DNA of 64,000 nucleotides. Origin: Patescibacteria group bacterium. GTDB lineage: Bacteria > Patescibacteriota > Minisyncoccia > Phycocordibacterales > JAGLPS01. The position numbers and the translations under genes are program-made. The notes beneath the pieces are model-generated. The model was not told the DNA's origin. It did no database searches and saw nothing but the letters and a program-made list of their open reading frames with translations. The stretch lies in NCBI GenBank assembly GCA_038057845.1, contig JBBUCK010000041.1, positions 1,042 through 65,041 of the forward strand. Reading direction: 5' to 3'. Of the stretch, positions 5,383 through 63,141 are shown piece after piece (position 1 is the first letter of the stretch; each line of letters starts with the position of its first letter).

Positions 5383-6597
5383 ATGAAAAGAATACTTATA
5401 TTTTCGCTCGTCTACTATCCCCGTTTTATCGGCGGAGCGGAAGTTGCCATCAAAGAAATAACAGATCGAATTTCTCCAAAAGAAATTGAATTTGACATGA
5501 TTACTTTGCGTCTTGATTCAAAACTTCCGGCAGTGGAAAAGATTGGCAACATCAATGTTTATCGAGTCGGCTGGTCATCACGGCAGAAACAGTCATCTGA
5601 CTCTCTTCCTTGGCATTTACATCTGAATAAGTATGCCTTGATGTTTACTGGGTTTTTCAAGGCTGTCTCTCTTTCAAGGGTGAAAAAATATGACGCAATC
5701 TGGTCAATAATGGCCACCTACAATTCATTCGCGGCTTTATTTTTCAAGCTGACTCATCTGGATATTCCATTTATTCTTACTCTTCAGGAAGGTGATCCGA
5801 TTCCATACATCAAACGTCGCGCTCTTCCACTCTATCCGCTCTTTAAAATGATCTTTACTCGCGCCGATGCCATTCAGACGATTTCAAATTATTTGGCTAA
5901 CTGGGCAAAAGATATGAATGCGAAATGTCCTATTACAGTCGTGCCAAATGCGGTTGATTGTGATTTATTTTCAACAAGGAAGTTCGCGGAGGAGGAAACA
6001 GCATTGAAGAAACAATTGAACAAGAACGAAGGAGATGTTTTTTTGATTACCACCTCTCGTCTCGTGGTTAAAAACGCGGTCGGTGATATTATTGCCGCGC
6101 TTCAATTTTTGCCTGAGAATATTAAATTACTTATTCTTGGTCAGGGGTATGAGGAAGCGGCTCTTAGGAGGAAGATTGTCGATTTGAAATTGGAGGGACG
6201 GGTGCAATTTTTGGGCTTTGTGCCTCATGCCTCAATGCCGCAGTATTTGCATGTCTCCGATATTTTTGTACGCCCGTCGCTCTCCGAAGGGATGGGTAAT
6301 TCTTTTGTGGAAGCAATGGCAGCAGGGCTTCCTGTTATCGCGACTCAAGAAGGAGGAATCGCCGACTTTCTTTTTGATCCAGAGAGGAATCCAAATAAAT
6401 TACCAACCGGTCGCGCCGTGAACCCAAAGGACCCCAAAGGGATTGCGCGTGCAGTCGAGTTGTATCTTTCTGATAAAAAAAAGACAGAAGAAATTATTAA
6501 AAACGGACAGGGACTTGTATTTGAAAAGTACGAATGGGACAAAGTTGCCCGTGATATGAAAGAAAAAGTTTTCAATACGTTATTTAACCGTATATGA
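5383..6597 (+). CDS. glycosyltransferase family 4
   Basis: C-terminal EGMGNSFVEAMAAGLPVIATQEGG motif (GT4 E-x7-E region). Confidence 0.8.
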   Translation: MKRILIFSLVYYPRFIGGAEVAIKEITDRISPKEIEFDMITLRLDSKLPAVEKIGNINVYRVGWSSRQKQSSDSLPWHLHLNKYALMFTGFFKAVSLSRVKKYDAIWSIMATYNSFAALFFKLTHLDIPFILTLQEGDPIPYIKRRALPLYPLFKMIFTRADAIQTISNYLANWAKDMNAKCPITVVPNAVDCDLFSTRKFAEEETALKKQLNKNEGDVFLITTSRLVVKNAVGDIIAALQFLPENIKLLILGQGYEEAALRRKIVDLKLEGRVQFLGFVPHASMPQYLHVSDIFVRPSLSEGMGNSFVEAMAAGLPVIATQEGGIADFLFDPERNPNKLPTGRAVNPKDPKGIARAVELYLSDKKKTEEIIKNGQGLVFEKYEWDKVARDMKEKVFNTLFNRI

Positions 6598-7748
6598 CAC
6601 CTAAAAAAATTCTCATTGCTACAGGAATATATCCACCCGATATAGGGGGACCTGCCACATATTCAAAACTACTTGCGGACGAATTGCCAAAACACGGCAT
6701 TGAAGTAATGGTACTTACATTTGGTGCAGTGCGGCATCTGCCGAAGGTAATACGACACCTTGCTTATTTTTTTAAAACGCTTTCGCAAGGCAGAGAGGTA
6801 GATATTATTTATGCCCAAGACCCGGTAAGCGTTGGTCTACCGGCTTTATGGGCCGCACGACTGCTTAGAAAACGTTTCCTTCTTCGTTTGGGAGGAGATT
6901 ATGCTTGGGAGCAGGGTGTTGCGCGATTTGGAGTTAAGGATACCCTCGACGAGTTTGTCAAAAAATATGATGCATATCCGTTGTCTGTGCGAATGTTAAA
7001 GAAGATACAAACCTATGTTGCGCAACATGCAGAAACAGTAATTGTTCCAAGTCGGTATCTTGCAAGTATTGTGCAGGTTTGGGGAAGGAAAATAAATGTA
7101 AAAGTAATACATAATGCTTTTTCTCTCAATTCAGTTTCTGACAGTAATACATACACGTCTTATACTTTGACTCTTGTTCCAGAGAGTAAAGACGAACTTC
7201 GTAAAAAACTTAATTTTCAAGGGAAAGTTATTCTTTCTGCGGGTCGATTCGTCCCTTGGAAAGGTTTTGATATGCTTATTGAGATTATGCCTGATTTACG
7301 CAGAGAGGTACCTGATGCCTTTTTATACATTGTCGGTGAGGGTCCTGAACAGCCATTTCTGAAGACTTTAGTAGAAAAACATAATGCTTCAGAATACATA
7401 CATTTTCTTGGCACTCTTCCGCGTATAACACTACTCCAATACATTAAAGCTTCTGACGTATTTGCACTTAATACTGGCTACGAAGGGCTTTCCCATCAGC
7501 TTATTGAAGCGATGTCATTACATACTCCTGTAGTTACAACCAACATCCCAGGAAATAAAGAATTGATAAGAGATGGGATATCAGGAATACTTCTTAGCTA
7601 TAATGACAAAAAAGCGTTTACTGATACTTTGATTCGTGTTCTTTCTGAATTTGATACATCCGAGATCGTTAATCAAGCATTCGAAAAATCCCAGACATTT
7701 ACTTATAGCCGTATGATAAATGAAACAATTGACGCATTAGGCATATGA
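6594..7748 (+). CDS. glycosyltransferase family 4
   Basis: GT4-like two-domain architecture, GxEG...EAM motif; ATGA start/stop overlap with upstream GT. Confidence 0.8.
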   Translation: MTPKKILIATGIYPPDIGGPATYSKLLADELPKHGIEVMVLTFGAVRHLPKVIRHLAYFFKTLSQGREVDIIYAQDPVSVGLPALWAARLLRKRFLLRLGGDYAWEQGVARFGVKDTLDEFVKKYDAYPLSVRMLKKIQTYVAQHAETVIVPSRYLASIVQVWGRKINVKVIHNAFSLNSVSDSNTYTSYTLTLVPESKDELRKKLNFQGKVILSAGRFVPWKGFDMLIEIMPDLRREVPDAFLYIVGEGPEQPFLKTLVEKHNASEYIHFLGTLPRITLLQYIKASDVFALNTGYEGLSHQLIEAMSLHTPVVTTNIPGNKELIRDGISGILLSYNDKKAFTDTLIRVLSEFDTSEIVNQAFEKSQTFTYSRMINETIDALGI

Positions 7749-47670: not shown

Positions 47671-47703
47671 CTAACGCTTAAACAATCCGCCTTCTCGGCG
47701 GAT
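47671..47703 (+). terminator. rho-independent terminator (12-bp perfect stem AAACAATCCGCC/GGCGGATTGTTT, loop TTCTC, T-tract)
   Basis: seen directly. Confidence 0.7.
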
Positions 47704-47736
47704 TGTTTTTTGCTGTTCCTTTTTCTTTTCTTCCAG

Positions 47737-52795: not shown

Positions 52796-52810
52796 AAAGT
52801 TAATTAGTAA

Positions 52811-52850
52811 GGGCGCGTATGATTTTTATACGCGCCCTTTTCTTTTTGAT
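52811..52850 (+). terminator. strong intrinsic terminator GGGCGCGTA-tgattttta-TACGCGCCC + TTTTCTTTTT
   Basis: seen directly. Confidence 0.75.
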
Positions 52851-59909: not shown

Positions 59910-60887
59910 ATGGCATTTATTGACGAAATTCGTCTTTTCCTTAAAGCGGGAAATGGTGGCGACGGTGTTGTTCGTTGGCTCCACGAAAGAGGAAAAGAAT
60001 TTGGCGGTCCTTCCGGTGGTGATGGTGGAAAGGGAGGTAATGTCTACGCGCACGCACTGCGCGATTTAAGTGTGCTCTCACGTTATCGTTTTATACGAGA
60101 CCTTAAAGCCGAAAATGGTGGTGCGGGGGCAAAAGTAAAAAGGCACGGCGCTAACGGCAAAGACCTTATTGTCGAAGTACCTATTGGAACAGTGATTACT
60201 AATTTGAATACCGGTAGCGTTCGCTCACTTATGAAAGAAGGTGACTCCGTTCTTTTACTCGAAGGAGGAAAGGGTGGGTGGGGGAATGATCGTTTCAAAT
60301 CATCCACGAATGTTGCTCCGATGGAGGCAACCCCCGGCCTTGTTGGAGAAGAAGCGGAATTTCTTATTGAACTTGAACTTATTGCAGACGCGGGATTTAT
60401 TGGTCTTCCTAATGCAGGTAAATCAAGTCTTCTTAATACATTGACCCGTGCTCATGCAAAAGTAGGTAATTATAATTTCACCACTCTCGAACCCAACCTC
60501 GGAGATCTTTTTGGGTTCATTCTTGCCGATATCCCAGGTTTAATTGAGGGAGCGTCAGAGGGTAAAGGTTTGGGTTTTGCATTTTTACGCCATATTAAAC
60601 GAACTCGCATGCTATTCCATTGTATTTCTGTGGAAAATGAAGATCCTAAAAAGTCCTATAATACAATTAGGAAAGAACTTAAAGACTATGGGCACGACCT
60701 TTCTAGTAAACAAGAGGTGATTATTCTCACAAAAACCGACCTTGTGCCAGAAGAAACTCTCAAAAAAATGATAAAAGTAATGAAAAAACTTTCTCCTCAC
60801 ATTCTTACCGTTTCTATTCACGACCCTAATCTGGTTAAAAGTCTTAAGGATGAAATCATTAAGTTATTAAGATCGTTAGGAAACTAA
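59910..60887 (+). CDS. obg: GTPase Obg (short form lacking C-terminal TGS/OCT domain)
   Basis: GNGGDGVVRW...GGDGGKGGNVY glycine-rich Obg fold; GLPNAGKSSL G1; DIPGLIEGA. Confidence 0.9.
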   Translation: MAFIDEIRLFLKAGNGGDGVVRWLHERGKEFGGPSGGDGGKGGNVYAHALRDLSVLSRYRFIRDLKAENGGAGAKVKRHGANGKDLIVEVPIGTVITNLNTGSVRSLMKEGDSVLLLEGGKGGWGNDRFKSSTNVAPMEATPGLVGEEAEFLIELELIADAGFIGLPNAGKSSLLNTLTRAHAKVGNYNFTTLEPNLGDLFGFILADIPGLIEGASEGKGLGFAFLRHIKRTRMLFHCISVENEDPKKSYNTIRKELKDYGHDLSSKQEVIILTKTDLVPEETLKKMIKVMKKLSPHILTVSIHDPNLVKSLKDEIIKLLRSLGN

Positions 60888-60895
60888 AATATGTA

Positions 60896-60912
60896 CAAAG
60901 GGCGGTCCTTCG
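60896..60912. repeat. REP-like palindromic hairpin (loop GCGGT) upstream of Y1 transposase gene
   Basis: aaagggcggtccttcgt. Confidence 0.55.
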
Positions 60913-60930
60913 TCTATATTAAATAATGTA

Positions 60931-61656
60931 ATGGAGAGAAAGTTCAAATTTTCACTGGGAGAATATTATCACATTTACAACAGGGGAAATGATAAGAGGT
61001 TAATTTTTCTGGATGATCACGACAGTAGACGATTCGTCCTGTTGCTGTATCTTTGTAATAGTATGGAGCCATTAGACATGCGTACTTATTTCAACGAAGG
61101 GCGGTCCTTCGTTGATCTGTTTAGTATTGCTAGAAAGAGAACATTTGTTGATATTGGTGCCTATTGCTTAATGCCAAACCATTTTCATATTCTTGTTAAA
61201 GAAAAGATTGAAAACGGTATAACAAAATTTATCGGTAAATTATTGACTGCATATTCAATGTACTTCAATAAAAGACAACAAAGAACTGGTTCTTTGTTTG
61301 AAGGAAGATTTAAAGCCAGACATGTTGATAGTGATGAATATCTTAAATATCTATTTTCTTATATACACTTAAATCCGATTAAACTTATTGATAAAGAGTG
61401 GAGGGAGAACAATATTCCAGATAGAATCAAGGCGCATAAATATCTTCAAGAATATCCTTATTCAAGCCATCTTGACTACCACCAAATCATCGTAAGGAAA
61501 GAAACAGTGATCTTAAACAAAAGCGCTTTTCCGGAGTATTTTTTACAACCAAAAGAATTCGATGCTTTTATTAGTGACTGGCTTTCTATAAAAGAATCGT
61601 TTTTACAAACAGATCTAACAAGTAAAAAAACGAAGGACCGCCCTTCGTTTGTGTGA
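60931..61656 (+). CDS. HUH Y1 tyrosine transposase, RayT/IS200-like (PF01797)
   Basis: HIYNRGNDK, YCLMPNHFHILVKE (HuH), YLFSYIHLNPIK (catalytic Tyr region). Confidence 0.75.
   Translation: MERKFKFSLGEYYHIYNRGNDKRLIFLDDHDSRRFVLLLYLCNSMEPLDMRTYFNEGRSFVDLFSIARKRTFVDIGAYCLMPNHFHILVKEKIENGITKFIGKLLTAYSMYFNKRQQRTGSLFEGRFKARHVDSDEYLKYLFSYIHLNPIKLIDKEWRENNIPDRIKAHKYLQEYPYSSHLDYHQIIVRKETVILNKSAFPEYFLQPKEFDAFISDWLSIKESFLQTDLTSKKTKDRPSFV
61093..61114. repeat. internal copy of REP-like hairpin (same orientation as 5' copy) inside the transposase CDS
   Basis: caacgaagggcggtccttcgttg. Confidence 0.5.
61630..61649. repeat. REP-like hairpin in inverted orientation (loop ACCGC) overlapping transposase stop
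   Basis: acgaaggaccgcccttcgtt = reverse complement of the 5' copy. Confidence 0.55.
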
Positions 61657-63067
61657 ACCAATGAAATATATACCAACAATAGGTCTAGAAATACACGCCG
61701 AGCTTAAAACGCAGACAAAAATGTTCTGTAATTCAAAGAATGACAGCGAGGAAAAGAGGCCCAACGTCAATATATGCCCTATTTGCACGGGCCATCCCGG
61801 CACCCTTCCAGTCATTAATAAAGAGGCGGTTAAACACGTCTTAAAACTAGGACTTGCTGTGAATGGCGCACTCGCCAACTTCACGGAATTTGACCGTAAA
61901 AATTACTTTTATCCAGACATTCCTAAGGGATATCAGATTAGCCAGTATAAGCACCCCCTTGTTCTTGGTGGAGAAATTAGAGGTATTGCACTTACTCGTA
62001 TTCACCTCGAAGAAGATACTGCACGTTCTACCCATCATGGCGATTACAGCCTAGTGGATTTTAACCGTGCCGGTGTGCCTTTAATGGAACTTGTTACAGA
62101 ACCCGTTATCCACAGCGGTGGAGAGGCAGTCCTTTTCGCGCGTGAACTTCAGCTTCTCTTGCAATATCTCCACGCAGGAAATGCCAATATGGAAAAAGGT
62201 GAAATGCGTGTTGAAGCAAATATTTCGGTAAGTACTAATAAAACACTTGGGACAAAGGTGGAAGTTAAAAATCTCAACTCATTTCGTGCAGTGGAACGAG
62301 CGATTGAATATGAAATTAACCGTCAGAGCAAACTCCTTGAACAAAAGGAGAAGATTATTCAAGAGACTCGCGGTTGGGATGAAGGGAAGGGGATAACATT
62401 TTCACAACGCGCAAAAGAAGACTCTCACGACTACCGATATTTTCCTGACCCCGACATCCCTAAATTATTTATTTCTGAAGTCCCTGAATTTAATAAAGAA
62501 AAACTCTCAAAGGAACTTTCAGAGTTGCCATGGCAGAAGCGAAAACGATACTTGGAAGTTTTTGGTTTGAAAGAAACTGACGTAGAAATATTCATTCACC
62601 AAAAAGAATGGTGTGAGTTGTTTGAACAAACAATAGTAAATTTCAAAGACGACAAAAAATTAATTCAGCTTACTTCAAACTATATTGTAAGTGATTTGGC
62701 GGGACTTTCTAAAACGGGGAATACTCTTGGAAACATCACCTCCGATTCTTTGGCTTCTTTAATTCACATGATTGGAAAAGGAGAAGTGTCTTCCCGAGGC
62801 GGAAAAGATATTCTCAAAGTTCTCTATGAGAAAGGGGGGGACCCGAGAGAGCTTGCAAAAGAGATGGATTTAATCCAAAAAAGTGATGAGAACACGCTTA
62901 CTCTAATAGTCAAAAAAGTCCTAAAAAGTCATCCAAACGTTGTTGCCGAGTATAGGTCAGGAAAGGAAAATGCCCTGCAGTTTCTTATCGGTCAAGGTAT
63001 GAAGGAAAGTCAGGGAGGGGCAAATCCAGAAATTCTTTCAGAGCTTTTCAGAAAGATATTAAGTTAG
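61649..63067 (+). CDS. gatB: Asp-tRNA(Asn)/Glu-tRNA(Gln) amidotransferase subunit B
   Basis: IGLEIHAELKT...NRAGVPLMELVTEP...C-terminal YqeY-like domain. Confidence 0.9.
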   Translation: MCEPMKYIPTIGLEIHAELKTQTKMFCNSKNDSEEKRPNVNICPICTGHPGTLPVINKEAVKHVLKLGLAVNGALANFTEFDRKNYFYPDIPKGYQISQYKHPLVLGGEIRGIALTRIHLEEDTARSTHHGDYSLVDFNRAGVPLMELVTEPVIHSGGEAVLFARELQLLLQYLHAGNANMEKGEMRVEANISVSTNKTLGTKVEVKNLNSFRAVERAIEYEINRQSKLLEQKEKIIQETRGWDEGKGITFSQRAKEDSHDYRYFPDPDIPKLFISEVPEFNKEKLSKELSELPWQKRKRYLEVFGLKETDVEIFIHQKEWCELFEQTIVNFKDDKKLIQLTSNYIVSDLAGLSKTGNTLGNITSDSLASLIHMIGKGEVSSRGGKDILKVLYEKGGDPRELAKEMDLIQKSDENTLTLIVKKVLKSHPNVVAEYRSGKENALQFLIGQGMKESQGGANPEILSELFRKILS

Positions 63068-63102: not shown

Positions 63103-63141
63103 AGGTTTGGAAAAGTCATCTCGGGTACCCGAGATGACTTT
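63103..63141 (+). terminator. strong intrinsic terminator (14-bp stem AAAGTCATCTCGGG-ta-CCCGAGATGACTTT + GTTTT)
   Basis: seen directly after gatB. Confidence 0.75.

Follow-up and report, generated by a model that had tools for sequence, protein, structure and literature searches.

A RAYT-like Y1 gene of Patescibacteria flanked by REP-like hairpins and carrying one in its own reading frame

What kind of genetic unit consists of a gene for a Y1 transposase-like protein, a short palindrome on either side of it, and a further copy of the same palindrome that is read in frame as part of the protein? Such a locus lies in a 64,000-nucleotide stretch of contig JBBUCK010000041.1 from a Patescibacteria group bacterium, which was analysed at its full length and is referred to here as the window (G+C content 38.7%). 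The analysis matched it to a Patescibacteria metagenome-assembled genome, GCA_964365255.1 (contig CAYIPD010000001.1). In the region 60500-62000, three genes run in the same direction: obg, an open reading frame (ORF) of 241 amino acids (aa), and gatB. We consider it probable that this locus is a REPtron-like unit, meaning a vertically inherited, single-copy Y1 HUH gene of the class of the REP-associated tyrosine transposases (RAYTs), together with a cognate hairpin resembling the repetitive extragenic palindromes (REPs). The self-embedded, in-frame copy of this hairpin, which co-varies with the copies on the flanks, is the unexpected and unreported part of the system: in a limited literature collection, the RAYT papers that were checked describe no internal REP of this sort, and full-text search of the same collection returned no paper linking RAYTs or REPINs (REP doublets forming hairpins) with Patescibacteria or the Candidate Phyla Radiation (CPR). 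An earlier, sequence-only reading of this stretch had placed one Y1 gene between obg and gatB. Both the gene order and the single copy stand, the latter by a tblastn search of the 64-kb window that found no paralog.

One hairpin at a RAYT-like gene

A search of the window with a 16-mer of the hairpin (GAAGGGCGGTCCTTCG), allowing up to three mismatches, returns three sites, every one of them at the Y1 gene: 60897 (+ strand, one mismatch), 61096 (+, exact) and 61631 (-, exact). By chance 0.2 matches are expected, and none of 100 shuffles attained the observed count. A string for the window's hairpin is GAAGGGCGGTCCTTC. The internal copy folds into a strong hairpin (-10.5 kcal/mol as single-stranded DNA, z -7.2) that encodes (F)NEGRSFVD, residues about 54-62 of the protein, and the downstream copy is likewise strong (-8.8 kcal/mol, z -5.8). 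These two are perfect inverted repeats of each other over 21 nt (AACGAAGGGCGGTCCTTCGTT), and the palindrome is thus longer than the 17 nt of the sequence-only reading. The loop GCGGT is common to the upstream and internal copies, and appears inverted, as ACCGC, in the downstream copy. Upstream of the gene a copy does exist as had been claimed, although it reads CAAAGG-GCGGT-CCTTCG instead of beginning with CGAAGG, and its fold is weak. The downstream copy is indeed inverted, but rather than covering the stop codon it spans the last codons (KDRPSFV) and ends 3 nt short of the TGA at 61654-61656, 10 nt upstream of the gatB ATG. Because the C-terminal tail of about 19 residues that is translated through this downstream hairpin is absent from homologs (typically ~223 aa long) and is modelled as disordered, the hairpin is taken to be extragenic in origin. 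The third copy, within the coding sequence, had been listed as just one more hairpin; it is an exact match and the best-formed of the three, and it is the most unusual part of the locus.

The protein itself is clearly of the Y1 type. Residues 66-146 match the Pfam profile PF01797 (Y1_Tnp) with 38.2 bits against a gathering cut-off of 23, which agrees with the family assignment first made by eye. The two motifs behind that assignment, HFH and YIHLNPIK, are both present, and in an alignment of 24 homologs H84 and H86 of the HUH motif (NHFHILV), as well as Y144, H146, N148 and P149 of the tyrosine region, are invariant. An AlphaFold2 model built from this alignment (mean pLDDT, the predicted local distance difference test, 80.2; below 50 at residues 223-241) places Y144 in helix 135-147, giving the HUH motif with a single tyrosine on the following helix that characterises the Y1 superfamily. 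A fold search with the model puts 4er8_A first among solved structures (E 1.3e-6, template modelling score 0.63 on the target). In this structure the E. coli RAYT is in complex with a REP hairpin, and the TnpA structures of IS200, IS608 and ISDra2 rank behind it with E values of 4e-4 or weaker. As modelled, the fold is nearer to RAYT than to IS200/IS605 TnpA. As a side observation, in the NCBI annotation the same gene (P0001, 197 aa; identity 100%, coverage 82%) seems to begin only at Met45, leaving out the conserved first strand YHIYNRG; the longer ORF, which starts at 60931 and adds 60931-61062 upstream, is the form that aligns with all homologs.

Is the arrangement peculiar to this window? 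More than 7,600 homologs were found at 55-73% identity, and the best-scoring 120 are from the Patescibacteria group wherever a source is named. From 80 genomic loci and a few obtained by exact-protein look-ups, we assembled 64 distinct genes besides the window's own, and in nearly every one of these 64 loci the same locus-specific, G+C-rich hairpin stands on both sides of the gene, once 20-60 nt ahead of the ATG and again in the region of the stop codon or shortly past it. The apex AAGG...CCTT is constant across genomes, and the outer stem and loop vary from genome to genome. Where the loop decides the orientation, the flanking pair is inverted in 15 loci and direct in 4. Many flanking elements, moreover, are inverted doublets that form a larger hairpin, like REPINs.

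Furthermore, in relatives the hairpin also occurs away from the gene. At more than 150 nt from it, 26 locus-specific hairpin signatures were counted in 830 kb of homolog flanks, where by our own estimate ~0.01 would be expected. The exact 19-mer ACGAAGGGCGGTCCTTCGT was found on 35 metagenome contigs, mostly in intergenic positions, with a Y1 gene detected on 2 of them. Seven of these contigs have a coverage of 42-46 in one Hainich groundwater sample, and one is 100% identical to genome H41-bin067_1; this set carries 17 core copies on its 7 contigs, 12 of which are away from the Y1 locus, on 6 further contigs. Dispersed copies are arranged as singlets, tandem pairs and inverted doublets, and their consensus unit, TTTACGAAGGGCGGTCCTTCGTAAA, has a T-tail on neither strand. 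Another relative, represented by the 997-kb contig JACKGF010000001.1, has a hairpin of its own (TCCGAAGGG-TGG-CCCTTCGGA). In locus L104 (7265-7325; also in L097 and L127), an inverted doublet of the same hairpin lies in frame within the arginyl-tRNA synthetase (ArgRS) gene argS, where it sits between the Arg_tRNA_synt_N and catalytic domains and adds ~20 residues (LRRTALRKNEENEGRSFVKT).

The systems to compare are E. coli TnpA(REP)/YafM with its REPs and bacterial interspersed mosaic elements, and the RAYT-REPIN systems of Pseudomonas (PMC3333891, PMC3116915, PMC5581495). As in these, a Y1 HUH gene, apparently single-copy and for the most part vertically inherited, stands between short palindromes that are specific to the genome and frequently form inverted doublets. 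In relatives, the palindromes also recur in other intergenic positions, and the best structural match of the protein is 4er8. In contrast to these systems, the hosts here are Patescibacteria with tiny genomes; the protein, of about 223-241 aa, is extended by a helical part at its C-terminus and has extra residues inserted between helix 1 and strand 2; and the stems are perfect with an invariant AAGG/CCTT apex, one cognate copy being inside the gene's own coding sequence. The family also differs from REP-RAYT in scoring below the NCBIfam RAYT cut-off, in the missing GTAG/CGTC tag and in its low copy number, and these differences belong to a set of points that weigh against our reading. The NCBIfam equivalog model for RAYT, NF047646, gives 46.8 bits where 80 is the cut-off, and a sequence-profile search of the PDB matched no solved RAYT or TnpA. 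No GTAG/CGTC tag lies beside the hairpin in the consensus of 49 copies (tttACGAAGGGCGGTCCTTCGTaaaa). Copy numbers in relatives are low, at ~30 per Mb of flanking DNA, where E. coli K-12 has 584 REPs (PMC3333891), and the other ~63 kb of the window hold no copy of the GAAGGGCGGTCCTTCG type. The upstream copy in the window folds no better than shuffles (-1.9 kcal/mol, z -0.9), three sampled genomes have two copies of the gene, and we infer binding, cleavage and regulation by the Y1 protein entirely by analogy.

The REP/RAYT reading first proposed from the sequence holds in large part but is incomplete: it gains from the Y1 profile, the fold of 4er8_A, the flanking hairpins throughout the family and the dispersal in a relative, and loses where the score stays under the NF047646 cut-off and where the rest of the window has no further hairpin copy. 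Since the Y1 features, the inverted flanking palindromes and a RAYT-like fold are found, while the sequence model and the tag are not, the family fits best as a separate branch of the REP/RAYT kind that extends across Patescibacteria. Studies of how REPs, REPINs and their domesticated transposases last and evolve together have dealt almost solely with Proteobacteria and have left the question unanswered; this family would extend REP-RAYT systems to the CPR, a group with some of the smallest and most streamlined genomes.

The copy inside the coding sequence

The AAGG...CCTT hairpin is found within the coding sequence in 33 of the 64 loci, its centre 163-190 nt from the start, and all 33 are in one reading frame and at the same codon position. 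The stems are perfect and reach 14 bp, and the loci are spread over many candidate phyla. The encoded peptide varies with the hairpin (EGRSF, EGRAF, IQGLPLD, QGATLD, LQGSTLE, VQGQPLY, KGLSF and others). In the model, the peptide forms a surface loop (residues 56-60) between two helices (50-55 and 61-65), which are themselves inserted between helix 1 and the strand preceding the HUH strand.

The internal copy also follows the copies on its own flanks. Its central 17 nt match those flanks at 15 or more positions in 31 of 57 loci, compared with a match rate of 1.6% when internal copies are set against the flanks of other loci. Over the 33 internal hairpins, 85.8% of the cells of the 10-bp stem are paired and 66 cells have changes in both strands of the stem. 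Neither value is attained by any of 500 shuffles, and in slid controls only 33-53% of cells are paired. It should be noted that these sequences had been preselected for at least five contiguous pairs, leaving only the four outer pairs free of selection, and these are paired in 19-30 of the 33 sequences. We also considered that the internal copy merely reflects conservation of EGRSF at the protein level. This was rejected, as the peptide changes (EGRSF, QGLPL, IGLPY, QGSTL, KGLSF) and it is the DNA stem that covaries.

An ortholog, locus L128, with a protein 71% identical and the same order obg-Y1-gatB, allows the three copies of the window to be compared one by one. There, all three have switched to ACGAAGGT-CGG/CCG-ACCTTCGT, and the pattern of orientations differs, with the upstream copy inverted and the internal and downstream copies alike. 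From this comparison we conclude that the three copies evolve in concert, and that their loops can flip.

So what would a gene gain from a palindrome in its own reading frame? It is possible that it gains nothing: that the REP/RAYT reading is right and the internal copy is functionless, a REP that long ago inserted in frame into a loop able to tolerate it, and that is kept like the others by template switching or gene conversion between palindromes a few hundred bases apart. In-frame insertion of a REPIN is seen in this very group, in the ArgRS of L104; the peptide falls in a loop that joins two short helices; the internal hairpin has been lost from about half of the family; and the flip in loop orientation between orthologs is what template switching would give. 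Such a passive history sits less easily with the retention of the copy at a single codon position and frame, its stems perfect and up to 14 bp long, by 33 of 64 loci over many candidate phyla, with a core that is identical to distant dispersed copies and not just to its neighbours, and with the internal copy being the best-formed hairpin in the window.

The converse, that the in-frame hairpin has a function as a master or cis-acting copy of the site that the enzyme itself recognises, is somewhat doubtful, yet its consequences would be considerable. If it is true, purifying selection on the gene shields the master copy from deletion, and REP sequence and specificity are inherited together. The master copy could then reseed or retune the dispersed hairpins under strong deletion pressure, or it could be an autoregulatory site. 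HUH Rep genes with an origin of their own inside them would then offer a parallel, and the protein loop would be a natural record of RAYT-REP co-evolution.

Within the REP/RAYT reading, a mechanism may be drawn up by analogy with E. coli TnpA(REP) and IS608 TnpA (PMC3333891, PMC5027513). A dimer of the protein would bind the hairpin in single-stranded DNA, for example in the lagging-strand template, and would cut and rejoin beside it by means of a metal bound by the HUH motif and a phosphotyrosine intermediate at Tyr144. Such activity would spread and renew the hairpin population. The same activity would keep the copies at the gene itself, including the internal one, matched to the specificity of the enzyme.

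Rolling-circle HUH Rep genes carry their own nick site, as with the origin in repC of pT181 and the origin in gene A of phiX174. The likeness is that of an HUH gene with a hairpin of the expected recognition type in its coding sequence; unlike the present case, those sites are plasmid or phage replication origins, whereas here nothing points to rolling-circle replication and further copies of the site lie outside the gene. Ogata et al. (2000) reportedly described Rickettsia palindromic elements inserted in frame in protein-coding genes. In both cases palindromes in frame in coding sequence add a peptide, here to the Y1 gene itself and to the ArgRS of a relative, but the Rickettsia elements are 100-150 bp long and are not known to have a cognate enzyme, while those described here are ~20-60 bp and one of the host genes is the presumed enzyme. 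The term Rickettsia palindromic elements appears in PMC1779305. The present family shows that in-frame palindromic repeats are tolerated in essential genes outside Rickettsia. Moreover, with a presumed recognition hairpin at a fixed codon position, the co-variation of enzyme and site can be read from thousands of metagenomic sequences.

Insertion sequence or terminators

It is unlikely that the locus is instead an autonomous insertion sequence of the IS200/IS605 type, consisting of tnpA only, with the hairpins as its left and right ends and a recent insertion between obg and gatB. The Y1_Tnp domain and the hairpins at both ends of the gene fit such an element, as do the differing gene neighbourhoods between clades, the two gene copies in three of the sampled genomes, and an obg-gatB spacer with different content in a relative. 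The family shares with IS608, ISDra2 and IS200 TnpA the Y1 HUH fold and subterminal hairpins of the sort recognised in single-stranded DNA, without classical terminal inverted repeats. The ends, however, are mostly inverted where those of IS200/IS605 are direct; the hairpins occur without the gene in relatives; there is no tnpB; and the gene is syntenic and apparently single-copy, with one copy in the window and a position conserved between species. Further points against a mobile element are the degenerate upstream copy, a structure nearer to RAYT than to IS608 or IS200 TnpA, and protein identities of 55-73% over a very broad clade, which are typical of a host gene. The insertion between obg and gatB, which had been proposed from the window alone, is not a recent event, as the same order is found in a sister species in which the protein is just 71% identical.

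Synteny is kept within other clades too. In addition to obg-Y1-gatB in the window and L128, there are clades in which a gene for a PG_binding_1 protein accompanies the Y1 gene, with rplJ-rplL a short way downstream in some loci. A related species (Obg 58% and GatB 71% identical) has no Y1 gene between obg and gatB. Its spacer (L122, 1195-2203) holds degenerate and intact hairpins on either side of a 170-aa orphan ORF, for which there was no Pfam match. This content shows the obg-gatB spacer to be a variable spot over longer times, and it looks like a recurrent landing or exchange site. The behaviour of the Y1 gene, then, is that of a host gene handed down vertically and relocated now and then; RAYTs have been described in the same way (PMC5581495).

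Equally improbable is that the hairpins are ordinary terminators, attenuators or mRNA-stabilising stem-loops unrelated to the DNA specificity of the protein, with the internal copy as an intragenic attenuator: a scan does score the internal copy as terminator-like on the + strand and the other two on the - strand, the upstream copy comes after the obg stop codon, and REPs elsewhere in bacteria affect termination and mRNA stability (PMC3733652), but the same 16-21 nt recur at these three places alone in 64 kb with dozens of genes, a T-run is missing from the sense strand at the downstream copy, which is 10 nt away from the gatB ATG, the dispersed unit of relatives (TTTAC...GTAAA) has a T-tail on neither strand, and a sequence-specific tie to one gene family over 64 genomes, with co-variation, would be unexpected. 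On the minus strand, TTTTTTT comes directly after the downstream hairpin (61628-61650), which in this direction has the score of an intrinsic terminator and could stop antisense transcription that arrives from the side of gatB.

Promoter-like site, feature coordinates and neighbouring sequence

The upstream copy coincides with a promoter-like site (Table 1), from which a transcript almost without a leader is predicted. The scan by itself is weak evidence, because such sites are no more frequent in the region than in shuffles. Across the homolog loci, a TATAAT-like box begins at -12 from the ATG in 27 of the 64, and on account of this the gene appears, as judged from sequence, to be transcribed from a promoter of its own into an mRNA with almost no leader. 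The upstream hairpin has its 3' end at a median of 27 nt before the ATG, which puts the hairpin over the -35/spacer region and makes a regulatory role conceivable. As the upstream copy fills the spacer of the promoter-like site in the window, protein binding there could autoregulate expression.

Table 1. Positions of the Y1 gene, its hairpin copies and adjoining features in the window.
Feature	Position	Strand	Basis
obg (GTPase), upstream neighbour	59910..60887	+	ORF; Pfam GTP1_OBG and MMR_HSR1 match the identical gene in L001; also neighbour in L128
Promoter-like site, TGTACA-17 nt-TATATT, spacer formed by the upstream hairpin copy	60892..60920	+	Consensus scan, 9/12 matches; putative function
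Upstream hairpin, ACAAAGGGCGGTCCTTCGT, A:C mismatch in stem, loop oriented as in the internal copy	60895..60913	+	16-mer scan
Y1 HUH (RAYT-like) gene, 241 aa including C-terminal tail	60931..61656	+	ORF, Pfam, alignment, model
Internal hairpin, TCAACGAAGG-GCGGT-CCTTCGTTGA, 10-bp stem, in frame	61091..61115	+	Scan and folding
HUH motif codons H84-F85-H86	61180..61188	+	H84 and H86 invariant in alignment
Putative catalytic Tyr144 codon (YIHLNP)	61360..61362	+	Invariant in alignment; helix 135-147 of model
Downstream hairpin, AAACGAAGG-ACCGC-CCTTCGTTT, 9-bp stem	61628..61650	-	Scan and folding
gatB, downstream neighbour	61661..63067	+	ORF; called gene with GatB_N and GatB_Yqey in L001

A known RNA family in the region 60500-62000 was considered and rejected, as an Rfam scan with E values up to 1 gave one 20-bit match alone, which we put down to chance.

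In L010 (the P0008 locus; 5863-5943 and 6677-6764), a 64-nt direct repeat, 98% identical between its copies, brackets the Y1 gene and contains large palindromes with stems of 19-22 bp that carry TTATCCACA. Apart from this repeat, the ATG of the gene is preceded at 16 nt by a small hairpin, ACGAATGGGATGTCCTTCGT, and the internal hairpin of the locus has decayed (QRNRTF). TTATCCACA, a perfect DnaA-box 9-mer, is enriched about 10-fold in the homolog loci L010-L091 (70 found, ~7 expected). Almost all copies are on the strand of the genes and at intergenic or promoter-like positions, with many at 25-110 nt after the Y1 gene and ~4-5 kb upstream. The window has one copy of it, inside gatB (62106). 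A link between this DnaA box near the hairpins and a replication origin was rejected, given that it is a general, gene-oriented intergenic motif that is absent beside the window's hairpins and hence no part of the system. One possible role for it in Paceibacteria is that of a promoter-associated or regulator site.

As for other REP families in the window, a search for further G+C-containing hairpins with stems of at least 8 bp gave three, none of them related to the Y1 hairpin. All three are perfect, with stems of 12-13 bp; they lie at 63112-63141, 47680-47708 and 52809-52839, and are probably terminators; the first of these comes after gatB and contains GGTACC at its centre.

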